Under the pieces are notes generated by a model that saw nothing but the letters and a program-made list of their open reading frames with translations, did not search any database and was not told where the DNA came from. From an uncultured Clostridia bacterium (GTDB lineage: Bacteria > Bacillota > Clostridia > Christensenellales > UBA1242), in NCBI GenBank assembly GCA_944377315.1, contig CALWEM010000027.1:9934-73933 (forward strand): a stretch of DNA of 64,000 bases, given 5' to 3'. Below are positions 7,864-58,265 of this stretch, piece after piece (the first letter of the stretch is position 1; each line of letters starts with the position of its first letter). The translations under genes were made by a program, and so were the position numbers.

Positions 7864-9135
7864 TCATTCTGTGTATTCAAAAGTTATATCTTTGATTATC
7901 ACAGTGTCGCCGTCTTTCATACCCTTTTCAAGAAGCATATCAATGACGCCCATCTCTTTCAATCTTGTTTGAAAATATGCAAAAGACCTTGGGTCAGAAA
8001 TGATTACTCCGCGTGCCAAGTTCTCAATTCTTCCACCAGAAACTTCAAAACTGCCATCGTCTGTTCTTCTGATTTCAATGTTTTGAACATCCTTTTTGTC
8101 AAAATCGAAATCTTCCACTTCAAGTGGTGGCTTTTTTGGTATTTTTTTCAAATTCTCAAGAATTTTTTTCTTCAACTCCTCAACACCGCGATATGAAATC
8201 GATGAAAGCAAAATATAGTCCTTTATTTTAAATTTTTCTTCAAATTTTTCGAGTTTTTCTTTCAATTCTTCATCATCAATTAAATCACACTTTGAAAAAA
8301 CAGCAATTTGTTTGACATCTTTCAAAGTTTCGCGATATTTTTTGAGTTCATCATTAATGACAATGTAATCATTGAGAAAATCACGCCCTTCACTTTCGGA
8401 AATATCGATGAGATGAACAAGAAGTCGCACTCGTTCCACGTGTTTGAGAAAATAGTGCCCAAGCCCAAGTCCTTCACTTGCTCCTTCGATAAGCCCCGGG
8501 ATGTCGGCAACCACATATGTTTCTCCCAAAACTTCCACAACACCCAAATTTGGATATATGGTTGTGAATGGATAGTTTGCAATTTTTGGATTGGCGTTTG
8601 ATATCACTGAAAGAAGTGTGCTTTTGCCAACATTTGGAAAACCAATAAGTCCAACATCAGCAATCGTTTTGAGTTCCAATATAACTTCTTTTCCTTTCAC
8701 TGTTTCGCCTGTTTGTGAAAAGGATGGTGCTTGCTTGATGGAAGATTTGAAATAGTTGTTGCCGTGTCCACCCGCTCCACCTTTGAGCGCTCTGAATTCT
8801 TTGCCATTTTCACTCAAATCTGCGATGATTTTGTCGTTCTCTGGATTTATCAAAACAGTGCCAGTTGGAACCAATATGATTTCATTTTTTCCACTTTTTC
8901 CTGTTTGATTTTTGCTTGAACCATCACTGCCATTCTCTGCCACAAATTTTTTCTTGAAGCGGAAAGAATACAATGTGTTAAGTTCGTCTGTCGCTTTGAA
9001 AATGATGTCGCCACCTTTCCCGCCGTCACCACCATCTGGTCCGCCATTTGCCGTTTGTGCATTACGCAAAAAAGACACGGCTCCTTTCCCGCCGTTTCCT
9101 GCTTTTATGGAAATTTTGACTCTATCTAAAAACAT
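7864..9135 (-). CDS. obg: GTPase Obg
   Basis: [23 protein letters not shown]-terminus, G1 GFPNVGKST, and a C-terminal TGS-like domain. Start set to the ATG at 9135 with a GGAGAG RBS. Confidence 0.95.
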
Positions 9136-54569: not shown

Positions 54570-55877
54570 ATGAAAAATCGAATAATACTTGGAAGTATCG
54601 CCGTTTTGCTTATGGCAACAACATTGGCTGGTTGTAACAGCGGAAAAGACGCCACAATGACAAATCTTGCAAACCAACTCGACAAGACGAATAATTCCAT
54701 TCAAAATGTGAAAACTCTCTCTGACACCGATTTGGATGTGACAGAAGAACTTTTGGACAAACTTGCAACGCAAAACCAAAGTGAAAATGTCCAAAAAAAC
54801 ATCAATATTGCAAAAAACACTTTAAATTGTGAGCGTAATTGCAAGAATGAAGTTTTGAGAAAAACCGCAAAAATCAAAAATTATCTCTCAAAAAATGACC
54901 TAAAACTTGCAAAAAATCAAATTTCAGCATTAAAATCGCTTTCAAAAAATTTGTCAAAATATAACAACAGCATTTCATATTCTGAAAAGGAGTTTAACAC
55001 CGCGATAAATCACTACAACAATATGAAAAAATCAATCAACAAAAATCCAGAAAGAGCAAACGCCAAATTGAACAGTATCACCTGCAACTCAAATGCACGC
55101 TGTGCCTACTATGAAAATATTTTGAACACCTTGGACCAAGTGGAAAATGTTTTGAACATCGAAAACTATAATCCATATCAAGACGACAACTATAACTATT
55201 TCCCACTTGAAGAAAAATTAGATGACGGAAATGAAAATCTCATTGAAAGTGATGAAAATATTGGCGAAGAGTATGAAACTGCAGAAAAGCCAAAGAAAAA
55301 ACGCTTCAAGAAAAACATCGACACCTATCTAAATGATGAAGACAAAGAGAAAAAAGAATTTGAAAAAGAATTTGGCGATAAGAATTTTAGGGACTATAAT
55401 CTTGACACATATGCACCAACCAAACGAAATATTGACACCTATCGCCCATATTATCCATATGGAAACAACTACCGAAATGGCTATATGGGAATGTATGGAC
55501 AATACGGACAAACTCCATATATGCCATATGGCACCCCGTATAATGCTCCAATAAACAATGGTTCACCATATGGATATAATGCAAACAATTTTAATCGTGT
55601 GGCACAATTTGTCGATACCGAAGAAGTTGAAAAGGTTAATGAAAAAGATGATGAAAAATTAAACGAAAAGGAAAAAACACAAAATTTTGATGAAAAAATT
55701 TCAAAAAACTTGAAAAAAAGTGAAAAAATCGAGAAAAATGCTCCAAAAAAGGATATGAGAGAAATTGAGAAAGAACCACGACTTGAAGAATTTGAAAACA
55801 AAAATGAGCAAGAAGTAAGCGGTCTTGATGTTGAAATAATTGGCAATGACGAAGAAAAAGTTGTGGCACATAATTAA
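54570..55877 (+). CDS. Lipoprotein with coiled N/K-rich region and a Tyr/Pro/Asn/Gly-rich segment
   Basis: Lipobox LLMATTLAGC. Internal PYYPYGNNYRNGYMGMYGQYGQTPYMPYGTPYNAPINNGSPYGYNANNF. Confidence 0.8.
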   Translation: MKNRIILGSIAVLLMATTLAGCNSGKDATMTNLANQLDKTNNSIQNVKTLSDTDLDVTEELLDKLATQNQSENVQKNINIAKNTLNCERNCKNEVLRKTAKIKNYLSKNDLKLAKNQISALKSLSKNLSKYNNSISYSEKEFNTAINHYNNMKKSINKNPERANAKLNSITCNSNARCAYYENILNTLDQVENVLNIENYNPYQDDNYNYFPLEEKLDDGNENLIESDENIGEEYETAEKPKKKRFKKNIDTYLNDEDKEKKEFEKEFGDKNFRDYNLDTYAPTKRNIDTYRPYYPYGNNYRNGYMGMYGQYGQTPYMPYGTPYNAPINNGSPYGYNANNFNRVAQFVDTEEVEKVNEKDDEKLNEKEKTQNFDEKISKNLKKSEKIEKNAPKKDMREIEKEPRLEEFENKNEQEVSGLDVEIIGNDEEKVVAHN

Positions 55878-55884
55878 AGACAAG

Positions 55885-55921
55885 AAAAAATCAGCGACCA
55901 AACAAATCGCCGATTTTTTTT
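55885..55921. terminator. Bidirectional terminator
   Basis: An A run, then AATCAGCGA...TCGCCGATT (one mismatch), then a T run; lies between the lipoprotein gene and the tRNA operon. Confidence 0.6.
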
Positions 55922-55964
55922 ACGACCTTTTCAAAATCTCAATAAGGTTCGTTTTATTCTTCTT

Positions 55965-56039
55965 TGGTGCACCCAGAAGGACTCGAACCCTCCATAATGG
56001 TTCCGAAGACCATTGTGATATCCACTTCACTATGGGTGC
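55965..56039 (-). tRNA. tRNA-Arg (anticodon UCG), CCA encoded
   Basis: Manual fold of 75 nt: acceptor GCACCCA/TGGGTGC, D arm GTGA..TCAC, anticodon stem ATGGT/ACCAT with loop CTTCGGA, T arm GAGGG-TTCGAGT-CCTTC, 3' ACCA. Confidence 0.92.
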
Positions 56040-56202
56040 ATAAATTATTATTAAGTTGAGAAAAAGTTGTTGCAATCAAGGAACCATTATGGATACTTTC
56101 GGGGACCCCAAAAATATTGATTTTTTTTGGGGAGCGGAGCCGTCAATTGTTTAGCGGAAGATGTTGCAAACATCGGAGCGATTAAATTGACAAGGCGGAG
56201 CC

Positions 56203-56243
56203 GGTTCCGAAGACCATTGTGATATCCACTTCACTATGGGTGC
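56203..56243 (-). pseudogene. tRNA-Arg(UCG) 5'-half copy 2 (positions 1-41 only)
   Basis: Identical to the first 41 nt of the intact tRNA. Identity stops 3 nt into the 3' anticodon-stem strand. Confidence 0.9.
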
Positions 56244-56403
56244 ATAAATTGTTATTAAGTTGAGAAAGAGTTGTTGCAATCAAGGAACCATTATGGACAC
56301 TTTCGGGGACCCCAAAAATATTGATTTTTTGGGAGCGAAGCCGTCAATTGTTTAGCGGAAGATGTTGCAAACATCGAAGCGATTAAATTGACAAGGCGGA
56401 GCC

Positions 56404-56444
56404 GGTTCCGAAGACCATTGTGATATCCACTTCACTATGGGTGC
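56404..56444 (-). pseudogene. tRNA-Arg(UCG) 5'-half copy 3
   Basis: As copy 2. Confidence 0.9.
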
Positions 56445-56604
56445 ATAAATGTTATTAAGTTGAGAAAGAGTTGTTGTAATCAAGGAACCATTATGGAGAC
56501 TTTCGGGGACCCCAAAAATATTGATTTTTTGGGGAGCGGAGCCGTCAATTGTTTAGCGGAAGATGTTACAAACATCGGAGCGATTAAATTGACAAGGCGG
56601 AGCC

Positions 56605-56645
56605 GGTTCCGAAGACCATTGTGATATCCACTTCACTATGGGTGC
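56605..56645 (-). pseudogene. tRNA-Arg(UCG) 5'-half copy 4
   Basis: As copy 2; the sequence upstream of it (toward tRNA-Ser, on the minus strand) diverges after GTTGAGAAAG. Confidence 0.9.
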
Positions 56646-56659
56646 AAAAATGTTATTAA

Positions 56660-56798
56660 GTTGAGAAAGGCATTCGCTCCGCGGTCTGTCCGTCTTTGGT
56701 GGTTGGTCCGCTTTCACGCCGGGGCGGAGAAAACTTGCACACAGGCAACTTTTCTATTTCCGCCCGTTCGAATCCCTAAAAGTTTCGTCTCAACTTAT
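56660..56798 (-). other. Unassigned GC-rich structured segment between tRNA-Ser and the repeat array
   Basis: Closing stem GTTGAGA/TCTCAAC and strong hairpin GGCGGAGAAAACTTGC..GCAACTTTTCTATTTCCGCC. GC content is far above the local background. Confidence 0.4.
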
Positions 56799-56888
56799 TG
56801 GCGCAGAGAAAGGGATTCGAACCCTTGGTGCGATTTCTCGCACACAGCCTTTCCAGGGCTGCACCTTAAACCGCTCGGACATCTCTGC
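56799..56888 (-). tRNA. tRNA-Ser (anticodon GGA), CCA encoded
   Basis: Manual fold of 90 nt: acceptor GCAGAGA/TCTCTGC, anticodon stem CAGCC/GGCTG with loop CTGGAAA, long variable arm, T arm AAGGG-TTCGAAT-CCCTT. Confidence 0.92.
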
Positions 56889-56938
56889 ATTTAGGTTTAA
56901 TACTTAAAAATATTAAGTTGATTTCCTTGACCAAGGTT

Positions 56939-56968
56939 ATTATATCAAACCGAGTGGTTTAAGGTCAA
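56939..56968 (-). promoter_or_regulatory. Sigma-A promoter of the tRNA-Ser / tRNA-Arg locus
   Basis: Minus strand TTGACC-18 nt-TATAAT, about 50 nt upstream of tRNA-Ser. Confidence 0.7.
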
Positions 56969-57194
56969 GGGTTCAATAAAAATATTTCATAATTAAAATC
57001 TTTAAACCACTCAATTATTATAACAAAACCAAATTAAAAAAACAATCAATTATGGCATTTTTTTCATTATTTAGTATCAAAAAATCTCAATTTCTTGCCG
57101 TATTCTTAATCTTAAAAATTATTTTCGCATCTTGCATCATCATAATTCACTCTTTATCATCAATTGCTTGAAGCGAGATTAAAACAATCTCCTA

Positions 57195-58265
57195 TCACCA
57201 CTTCTTATCAATAATCCCGCCACCATAGCAGACACCATTTTTATCATACAAAACAACAAATTGCCCTTCAGTTATTGCTCTTTGTTTTTCTTTGAAATCA
57301 ACTTTTATCTTCTTATCTTCCAAAACAGTCACCTTGACCGCTTGGTCTGGTTGACGATATCGAAATTTAGCAAAGCATTCAAACTCTTTTTCCTTCGGTT
57401 CTTCTGGAATCCAATTAAAATCTGTGGCAAACAAACCATTTGAGAAAAGTTCTGGGCACTCGCCTTGGCTGACATACAACACATTTTTTTCCAAATCTTT
57501 TTTGAGAACAAACCATCTTTCACCATTTCCATCGTGCGTTCCACCAAGATTTAGTCCGCGTCTTTGTCCGATGGTGTAATACATAAGCCCATCGTGATAT
57601 CCAACCACCTTTTCGTCAAGCGTTCGAATTTCACCACGCTTTGCTGGCAAATATTCTTTCAAAAACTTTTTGAAATTACGCTCACCAATGAAGCAAATGC
57701 CTGTCGAATCTTTCTTTTCAGCCGTGGAAAGTCCAAGTTCTTTGGCAATTTCTCTCACTTCCTTTTTGGTTATGTCAGCAAGTGGGAAAATCACCGAAGA
57801 AAGTTGCGACTGTGAAAGTTGATTGAGAAAATACGACTGGTCTTTCGTCAAATCGCTGGCTTTGCAAAGATAAGTTTTTCCATCTTTTTGAAAAGTTTTG
57901 GCATAGTGTCCTGTGGCTATCATATCCGCGCCCAATTGTTTTGCTTTTTCAAGAAAAGGTCCAAATTTGATTTCGCGATTACATAAAACATCTGGGTTTG
58001 GCGTTCTGCCTTTCTTATATTCGTCCAAAAAATATGTGAAAACCCGGTCATAATACTCCTTGGCATAGTTGACGCTAAAATATGGTATGCCAATTTTGTC
58101 ACACACCCTTTTCACATCTTCATAATCTTCCATTGCAGTGCATTGACCGTCATCAGCGTCCCAGTTAATCATAAAAAGCCCGACAACATCATATCCCTGT
58201 TTTTTCAAGAGATATGCCGCCACACTCGAATCAACACCGCCACTTATTCCAACAACAACTCTCAT
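57195..58265 (-). CDS. mnmA: tRNA 2-thiouridine(34) synthase MnmA
   Basis: 356 aa with PP-loop [12 protein letters not shown] and conserved catalytic Cys residues. Confidence 0.96.

Follow-up and report, generated by a model that had tools for sequence, protein, structure and literature searches.

Putative self-restoring insertion modules at tRNA genes of uncultured Clostridia, each with a box complementary to its own junction

Why should a tRNA operon carry three halves of a tRNA gene in front of an intact copy of the same gene, each half accompanied by an inverted copy of the sequence at which the gene is broken? The question is raised by a locus in the window (i.e., the whole 64,000-nt stretch of DNA that was analyzed, from contig CALWEM010000027.1 of an uncultured Clostridia bacterium, assembly GCA_944377315.1), where the minus strand reads, in order, a tRNA-Ser(GGA) gene, a GC-rich block of ~130 nt and four 41-nt 5' parts of tRNA-Arg(UCG). 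Each of the first three 5' parts is followed by ~160 nt of other sequence, and the fourth continues into the 3' part to give an intact tRNA-Arg gene (Table 1). The unit is interpreted here, with a probability of roughly 0.5, as an insertion cassette that is non-autonomous, restores the gene it enters and finds its site by base pairing. Such modules make up a large family of small, protein-less insertions in the tRNA genes of this gut Clostridia lineage, apparently one not described before. The anatomy of the units, the covariation of their scaffold, a rule that links box and junction over many targets and the presence or absence of the array in different strains are documented below, together with the mechanism that they suggest.

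Table 1. Features of the tRNA-Ser/tRNA-Arg locus in window coordinates. A caret marks the junction between j1 and j2.
Feature	Position	Strand	Basis or remark
Terminator-like hairpin and T run after tRNA-Arg	55885..55919	minus	
Intact tRNA-Arg(UCG)	55965..56039	minus	ARAGORN; Rfam tRNA, 60.5 bits; G1 at 56039, 5' part ends at 55999
Target junction in the intact gene, GGAACC^ATTATGGAG, tRNA positions 36-50	55990..56004	minus	
Junction in tRNA-Arg	between C41 (55999) and A42 (55998)	minus	
Spacer of unit 1, with promoter-like TTGCAA (56075-56070) -17- AATAAT (56052-47) and conserved ACAACTTAATA	56040..56079	minus	9/12 match
Box of unit 1, (A)TCCATAATGGTTCC, 14 nt complementary to GGAACCATTATGGA	56080..56094	minus	
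Scaffold EL1, unit 1: long hairpin, then CCCCAAAA..TTTTGGGG hairpin, end GGGGTCCCC	56101..56202	minus	R1, 78.3 bits
Displaced copy of tRNA-Arg 5' part (positions 1-41), third from upstream	56203..56243	minus	G1 at 56243, ends at 56203
Box of unit 2, (G)TCCATAATGGTTCC	56284..56298	minus	
Scaffold EL1, unit 2	56305..56403	minus	R1, 69.2 bits
Displaced copy of tRNA-Arg 5' part, second from upstream	56404..56444	minus	G1 at 56444, ends at 56404
Box of unit 3, CTCCATAATGGTTCC	56484..56498	minus	Full 15-nt complement
Scaffold EL1, unit 3	56505..56604	minus	R1, 77.4 bits
Displaced copy of tRNA-Arg 5' part, most upstream	56605..56645	minus	G1 at 56645, ends at 56605
Degenerate partial copy of tRNA-Ser 3' part (GAGAAAGGCATTCG) before EL2	56663..56676	plus	Full 20-nt copy in strain L322
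Scaffold EL2, GC-rich, CTCCGCGG...ATTTCCGCCC	56677..56765	plus	blastn
Box of EL2, GTTCGAATCCCT, reverse complement of AGGGATTCG^AAC in the tRNA-Ser T-arm (56811-56822)	56766..56777	plus	
Intact tRNA-Ser(GGA), target of the EL2 unit	56799..56888	minus	ARAGORN; Rfam
Strong promoter-like site TTGACC-18-TG-TATAAT upstream of tRNA-Ser	56939..56968	minus	Consensus scan, 11/12

The array has a period of 201 nt (3.3 copies, 96% matches; Tandem Repeats Finder) and its units measure 201–204 nt. Read on the minus strand, a unit is composed of the 5' part ending in GGAACC, GGCTCCGCC, a long hairpin, GGCTCCGCTCCCC-AAAA..TTTT-GGGGTCCCC, GAAAGT, the box (C/G/A)TCCATAATGGTTCC and the stretch TTGATTGCAACAAC...TAATAA, after which the next 5' part begins. 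The initial annotation had pointed to the inverted copy of the tRNA breakpoint in each unit, and this is borne out: GGAACCATTATGGA occurs at 55991-56004 on the minus strand, inside tRNA-Arg, and at 56080-56093, 56284-56297 and 56484-56497 on the plus strand, i.e., four matches in the window vs. 0.03 expected from shuffles. The base that follows the match was also read correctly as T, C and G in the three units, so that the full 15-mer is found solely in the unit at 56484-56498, and box and tRNA copy do form 14-bp inverted repeats around the last 5' half and the ~40 nt upstream of it. The units contain no gene and no recombinase open reading frame lies near the array. The gene directly upstream of the tRNA operon (57195-58265, minus strand) encodes an MnmA-type tRNA 2-thiouridylase according to its Pfam families and is probably unrelated to the modules.

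Four promoter-like sites occur in the array region vs. 1.8 ± 1.5 in shuffles (consensus scan). By far the strongest is the near-consensus TTGACC-18-TGnTATAAT with an extended -10 element; since it precedes tRNA-Ser and the sole terminator follows tRNA-Arg, the whole array lies inside one tRNA operon, and this promoter is likely the driver of the entire Ser-modules-Arg transcript. A second promoter-like box, TTGCAA-17-AATAAT, had been ascribed to all three units and taken to mean that each half could be transcribed by itself. Unit 1 carries it (56075-56047, 9/12), units 2 and 3 read AATAAC or TAATAAC instead, and this modest match is not kept in the modules of other tRNA-Arg types. On the other hand, ACAACTTAATA(T/A) is found at a constant distance from G1 in related modules of four species (it is kept in G090, G141, and G160), which makes transcription of individual units plausible; a real element-borne promoter in each unit is thus a plausible but weak proposition on sequence grounds.

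A pattern search for repeated tRNA-Arg 5' parts in the genomes of 151 species of the same genus retrieved ~15 species with two to four copies, spaced by 182–213 nt and sharing one layout (5' part 1-41, scaffold, box, spacer, intact tRNA-Arg(UCG)). The breakpoint copy is present in these arrays as well, altered in each species to match its own tRNA. Three types of tRNA-Arg were distinguished: GGAACCATTATGGAG paired with the box CTCCATAATGGTTCC in four species, GGAACCATTTGTTC with the box GAACAAATGGTTCC in three species, and GGAACCATTAGTTC with the box GAACTAATGGTTCC, (G)AACTAATGGTTCC or ACTAATGGTTCC in eight species. On either side of the box, linker and spacer diverge freely among these species, and the box itself stays perfect. 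Uninterrupted tRNA-Arg genes of the same types occur in many other species. Some displaced 5' halves (L029 of G027, L058 of G064, L059 of G131, and L061 of G097) have changed their D-arm from GGTGTAATGG to GGCGAGCATGG (or GCGAACA / GGCGACCA); the change breaks the D stem and creates a complement to TGCTCGCC after the half, and the resulting helix is part of the minimum-energy fold in G027. An insertion of another kind occupies the same tRNA-Arg position at five further loci (L034 of G168, L025 of G160, L040 of G145, L028, and L046), where CATATTTTGGGGTTCGATAATCCCCATAAAAAAATTATCA..TTTTG comes after the 5' part and leads into a complete tRNA-Arg(UCG) of different sequence (GCTCCACTAGCTC...). Elements of at least two kinds therefore share position 41/42 of tRNA-Arg as a hot spot.

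The ~100-nt scaffold adjoining the box, named EL1, comprises two hairpins and displays very strong compensatory covariation. Across the 15 aligned species, 95% pairing is seen in the outer stem of the long hairpin, nine of whose 10 pairs are changed on both sides; the covariation score was reached by none of 500 shuffles, and all slid controls collapsed. A covariance model of the scaffold (R1), built without the box, served to align 79 distinct copies, in which 19 of 20 pairs show compensatory changes (322 cells), 86% of cells are paired and again 0/500 shuffles reach the observed value. The stems hold 1176 Watson-Crick cells vs. 24 G-T and 63 A-C. Most of the A-C cells (42 of 63, in 42 of the 79 copies) fall at one conserved position of hairpin 2 (alignment columns 121/143), inside the hairpin formed by CCCCAAAA and TTTTCGGGG; this conserved A opposite C, which would be G-U or G-T on the complementary strand, may mark the strand that folds, by analogy with the extrahelical bases of attC sites. 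When the last 14 nt of the target segment (T1) are included, the predicted minimum-energy folds pair its end, j1, with the 3' end of the box over 5–9 bp in most copies. The j1:box helix then closes a three-way junction with the two hairpins and the complement of j2 is single-stranded; in the window unit the predicted closing helix is GGAACC:GGUUCC and the free stretch CUCCAUAAU. The internal loops of hairpin 1 often hold CGCT, for which no complementarity to the target or to the ends was found, the putative guide being the linear 3' stretch. Rfam searches of 55850-57000, at gathering thresholds and at E≤10, gave only tRNA matches, with no ribozyme, intron or sRNA family on the scaffold.

R1 matches are present in 89 of the 151 genomes, a genome of ~1 Mb having up to 14 of them, and frequently lie at contig ends or form tandem pairs ~200 nt apart; outside the family only weak matches were obtained, a few of them with the same layout. 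Their locations include Phe, Gly, Thr, Glu, Leu, Ser, Lys, and Pro tRNA genes as well as three Arg tRNA genes. In element sense the order of parts is flank and T1 ending in j1, scaffold, 0–16 nt, box, spacer, and a second T1 joined to the remainder of the gene. The box is the reverse complement of j1 plus j2, that is, of the junction in the uninterrupted target, as in tRNA-Phe (GAAAATCCTTGTGTC, complementary to GACAC^AAGGATTTTC), tRNA-Thr (AATCGACAGGTCGCG, to CGCGAC^CTGTCGATT), tRNA-Arg(ACG) (AACAGAAGGTCGAGCG, to CGCTCGAC^CTTCTGTT) and tRNA-Ser(CGA) (GCACATTCGACCA, to TGGTCG^AATGTGC). When the 34 nt after the scaffold were compared with the next 330 nt in 60 further distinct copies, an exact complement of 11–17 nt was found in 29, vs. 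0/60 with a shuffled box and 0/60 with the first 34 nt of the scaffold. The initial annotation was thus right to regard the inverted copy as meaningful and a recombination-type role as possible, given that the box changes with the tRNA from species to species and over more than 10 tRNA targets.

Of 28 copies with a tRNA nearby, 24 are antisense and four sense to the tRNA (the latter orientation being that seen in the window), and the duplicated segment is the 3' part of the tRNA in the 24 and the 5' part in the four. Every box is antisense to the tRNA when read on the tRNA-sense strand, since complementarity within a strand survives reverse-complementing; a tRNA-sense box would be carried only by an element-sense transcript of the antisense-oriented copies. 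About half of the scaffold matches have no detectable box. At some loci (e.g., L113, G164:C26, and L124, G115:C10) the scaffold sits inside an otherwise full-length tRNA-Phe copy from which the 8-nt j2 is missing, with no box, and these interrupted copies (T1, scaffold, rest of the tRNA) stand in tandem beside an intact tRNA-Phe. At L138 and L139 (G033:C3 and C6) it belongs to a ~300-nt repeat away from tRNA genes, which is bounded by an 11-nt inverted repeat (CAGACTGTAGA and TCTACAGTCTG) and whose box region pairs with a nearby stretch with two mismatches, both of them G-U on the opposite strand.

The GC-rich block behind tRNA-Ser contains a second scaffold, EL2, which is unrelated to EL1 and yet obeys the same box rule. 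Contig C4 of the window's genome carries a copy of 88% identity, and blastn matches occur in 28 of the 151 genomes of the genus; other EL2 copies carry GTTCAAGTCCCA, GTTCGACTCCCA, or GTTCGATTCC, each beside a Leu, Ser or Glu tRNA that bears that T-loop. Together with a short form limited to hairpin 2, EL1 and EL2 amount to at least three types of scaffold with one logic. The genome from which the window derives (G000) harbors further units on C14 (~465), C19 (~63349), C20 (~15360) and C4 (~8200-8470), all on the minus strand. They comprise the short form in tRNA-Lys(CUU), two tandem short-form units in another tRNA, a full scaffold just upstream of the 5' end of the 16S rRNA and antisense to it, and an EL2 unit in tRNA-Leu(UAA), accompanied by a truncated older unit and an EL1-like copy next to rpsT.

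The locus was recovered from other samples by means of the neighboring MnmA-like protein. In strain L322, 98.8% identical over a stretch of 7 kb, tRNA-Arg is uninterrupted and exactly 606 nt are missing, i.e., the three units; the order is tRNA-Ser, an EL2 unit with the complete 20-nt copy of the tRNA-Ser end, TTAC, and tRNA-Arg. The array is present in strain L324 (99.95% identical), whose contig breaks off within the second unit. Window and empty site of L322 also differ in the upstream flank of the first 5' part (TGCGCCTTAC vs. AACTTAATAACATTTTT), hence the local history was not one clean insertion and involved more than one step. A possible alternative to transposition as the source of the difference between strains is homologous exchange of alleles.

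According to the preferred reading, a cassette would comprise, in element sense, the ~100-nt scaffold EL1, a box of 12–17 nt, a spacer, and a replacement copy of the target segment that it displaces; in the window the spacer would bring a promoter-like sequence and the replacement would be tRNA-Arg positions 1-41. Insertion would leave the old 5' part upstream and rebuild the intact gene from the cassette's own 5' part, and the array could have grown by repeated insertion or by unequal crossing over. Base pairing probably selects the insertion site, considering that each module carries the complement of its own junction and a replacement piece of the gene. In a single-stranded form, more likely of DNA than of RNA, the GGAACC of the displaced piece would pair with the 3' end of the box and close a three-way junction, leaving the rest of the box (CTCCATAAT) unpaired and able to anneal to ATTATGGAG in a tRNA gene without insert. 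GGAACC^scaffold of the element would next be aligned, by branch migration through GGAACC, with GGAACC^ATTATGGAG of the target, where strands might be exchanged, and movement would depend on a trans-acting enzyme or on host recombination. A process at the DNA level is argued for by the occurrence of modules in both orientations to the gene, by stems that are nearly purely Watson-Crick and by population features typical of mobile DNA.

Enzymes that might act in trans were sought in 18 genomes (that of the window, nine scaffold-rich and eight scaffold-free). The IS110 recombinase domain DEDD_Tnp_IS110 (PF01548) was found in none of the 18, with positive controls; TnpB (PF07282) gave nothing above cut-off in the same set, and the Y1 HUH transposase TnpA (PF01797) was represented by just one 63-aa fragment in one genome. 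Reverse transcriptase (PF00078), expected of a retroelement such as a group II intron, retron or DGR, is absent from the genome of the window and from eight of the nine other element-rich genomes, and is present in five of the 18, four of them element-free. Tyrosine recombinases (PF00589) occur in all 18 and do not track element load (e.g., G035 has eight scaffolds and one recombinase match). Blastn searches of the unit against phage and plasmid collections produced no match; the 16-mer GCTCCGCTCCCCAAAA was found in 17 IMG/VR contigs, none confirmed by R1, and its hits in genome_contigs were mostly chance matches in unrelated taxa, plus known relatives. No description of such elements was found in the literature searched; a language-model survey of non-coding space concerns bridge RNAs that adjoin IS110 recombinases.

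Several known systems share part of this logic. In the IS200/IS605 group the ends are rich in hairpins, a guide on the same strand at the foot of a hairpin pairs with target and cleavage sites, and the process is strand-specific; however, these guides measure 4 nt compared with 12–17 nt in the modules, no Y1 transposase or TnpB accompanies the modules in the genomes tested beyond the fragment mentioned, and only the modules hold a copy of the target segment. The bridge (seek) RNAs of IS110/IS1111 are likewise structured non-coding parts that set the target by pairing across the core and are reprogrammable among members, but they place their guides in two internal loops, whereas the modules have as putative guide one linear stretch after two hairpins, no identified donor-binding loop, and no DEDD/IS110 recombinase in the 18 genomes. 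Group I introns also use one contiguous guide (P1/P10), whose pairing bridges the end of the segment upstream and the beginning of that downstream, in the same 5'-to-3' order and at a tRNA site; the modules differ in that they contain no group I core or Intron_gpI match, have a scaffold of ~100 nt and occur in both orientations, and the unit is not an intron, because a further copy of the upstream segment separates the guide from the downstream one. Folded single-stranded sites (integron attC and the CTX-phage attP(+) used by XerCD) resemble the modules in conserving structure more than sequence, in tandem arrays, in a substrate that same-strand pairing could build and in a host recombinase that could be borrowed. 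Those sites nevertheless mimic one fixed site recognized by a protein, whereas the paired sequence of the modules differs for each target and no IntI-type integrase or dif-like site is involved.

The main competing explanation is a cis-acting RNA element co-transcribed with tRNA-Ser and tRNA-Arg, whose box would pair with positions 36-50 of the precursor or mature tRNA and thereby affect folding, processing or abundance, the scaffold and displaced half forming a stable leader or trailer RNA. It agrees with the placement of the array between one strong promoter and one terminator and with a box that is antisense to the tRNA on every tRNA-sense strand. Further points in its favor are an apparent compensatory change in the old upstream halves of G027 and G064 (D-arm GGCGAGCA, pairing with TGCUCGCC after the half), a scaffold with no half that has a TGTGCTATAAT promoter immediately in front of it (L091, G117), and the hairpin 2 A·C, equivalent to G·U on one strand, which hints at RNA or at a strand-specific fold. 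It is nonetheless rather unlikely: relative to the tRNA the scaffold would be transcribed as itself at four loci and as its reverse complement at 24, its stems are nearly devoid of G-U pairs, it also occurs at non-tRNA loci, in a repeat with terminal inverted repeats, and the family is multi-copy, patchy, polymorphic between strains, prone to form tandems and to break assemblies, all of which are marks of mobile DNA. For the first two of these reasons antisense control of mature tRNA-Arg, suggested in the initial annotation, is unlikely to be a general rule.

Three other explanations are less likely than the RNA-level one. Tandem accretion, insertion into a tRNA gene and an intact gene kept beside direct repeats of a tRNA segment, by virtue of the replacement that the element brings, are what tRNA-integrating islands, prophages and CIMEs have in common with the units, and partial direct repeats around an insert constitute the classic signature of tRNA-integrating elements; the units could accordingly be passive scars of integrase-mediated integration or accretion (copies of the attL/attR type, CIME-like), with the scaffold as an attP arm and the box as a by-product of core-site symmetry. 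Tyrosine recombinases in every genome tested, and the complete second tRNA-Arg brought by the other insertion at the same site (G168, G160, and G145), fit this explanation, which is quite improbable all the same. Unlike such islands, whole inserts of ~160–200 nt carry no gene and hence no integrase, one scaffold family serves more than 10 unrelated junctions, beyond the recognition of any single integrase, and the segment replaced may be the 5' or the 3' part; each module includes the reverse complement of its own junction, in a box ~100 nt from the crossover point that matches both sides and stays perfect while linkers and spacers diverge. Integrase counts are, as described above, unrelated to element load, and the phage, plasmid and IMG/VR searches gave no full-length relatives with an integrase between scaffold and tRNA repeat. 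A repair device would employ a transcript made of a spare tRNA piece and a splint, the box, that aligns it with the fragment of a tRNA cut at the junction (e.g., by a tRNA-cleaving toxin), the two being rejoined by a ligase or by the RNA itself. The layout of guide, structured core and replacement exon does recall trans-splicing, the box pairs with the last 5–9 nt on one side and 8–11 nt on the other in the order of a group I internal guide, and arrays would increase the dosage of halves. Such a device is very improbable, however, as no ribozyme family in Rfam matches the region, the scaffold would need to function in both orientations, and non-tRNA copies and plain interrupted copies would be left unexplained; moreover, no tRNA-Arg toxin is known to cut at 41/42, colicin D acting at 38/39. 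Almost no credence can be given to a site-specific inversion switch, also put forward earlier, in which the perfect 14-bp arms around the last 5' half and its upstream spacer would flip the half together with its promoter: none of the 29 loci with a detected box is flipped, as the complement is at most 17 nt long, there is no linked invertase gene, and flipping would destroy the sole tRNA-Arg(UCG) gene. Two simpler candidates were rejected, namely a MITE with j1 and its complement as terminal inverted repeats, since j1 is target sequence and different at every locus, and a remodeled tandem-inversion duplication, since the same conserved scaffolds recur in every case.

Beyond the cassette itself, it may tentatively be proposed that the modules represent a new class of mobile nucleic acid free of protein genes, in which a folded three-way junction with a programmable guide of 12–17 nt homes by toehold-style strand invasion into an essential conserved gene, a replacement piece makes the insertion harmless, and the chemistry is left to a universal host enzyme or to the nucleic acid itself; this wider proposal is clearly less probable than the cassette reading. 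Were the RNA-level explanation correct, a tRNA-derived leader pairing with its own tRNA would represent a novel form of control over tRNA operons. If the box truly selects the site, the modules would be a natural and very compact programmable insertion system (~120 nt of scaffold plus guide), aimed at unique sites in essential genes and able to mend the gene that receives it, of interest to the fields of mobile elements and genome engineering. They would also account for the half tRNA genes and pseudo-tRNAs found beside intact ones, a recurrent annotation puzzle in small genomes, and would constitute a major class of repeats in the reduced genomes of gut Clostridia (59% of genomes, up to 14 copies per megabase) and the source of many contig breaks in these assemblies.
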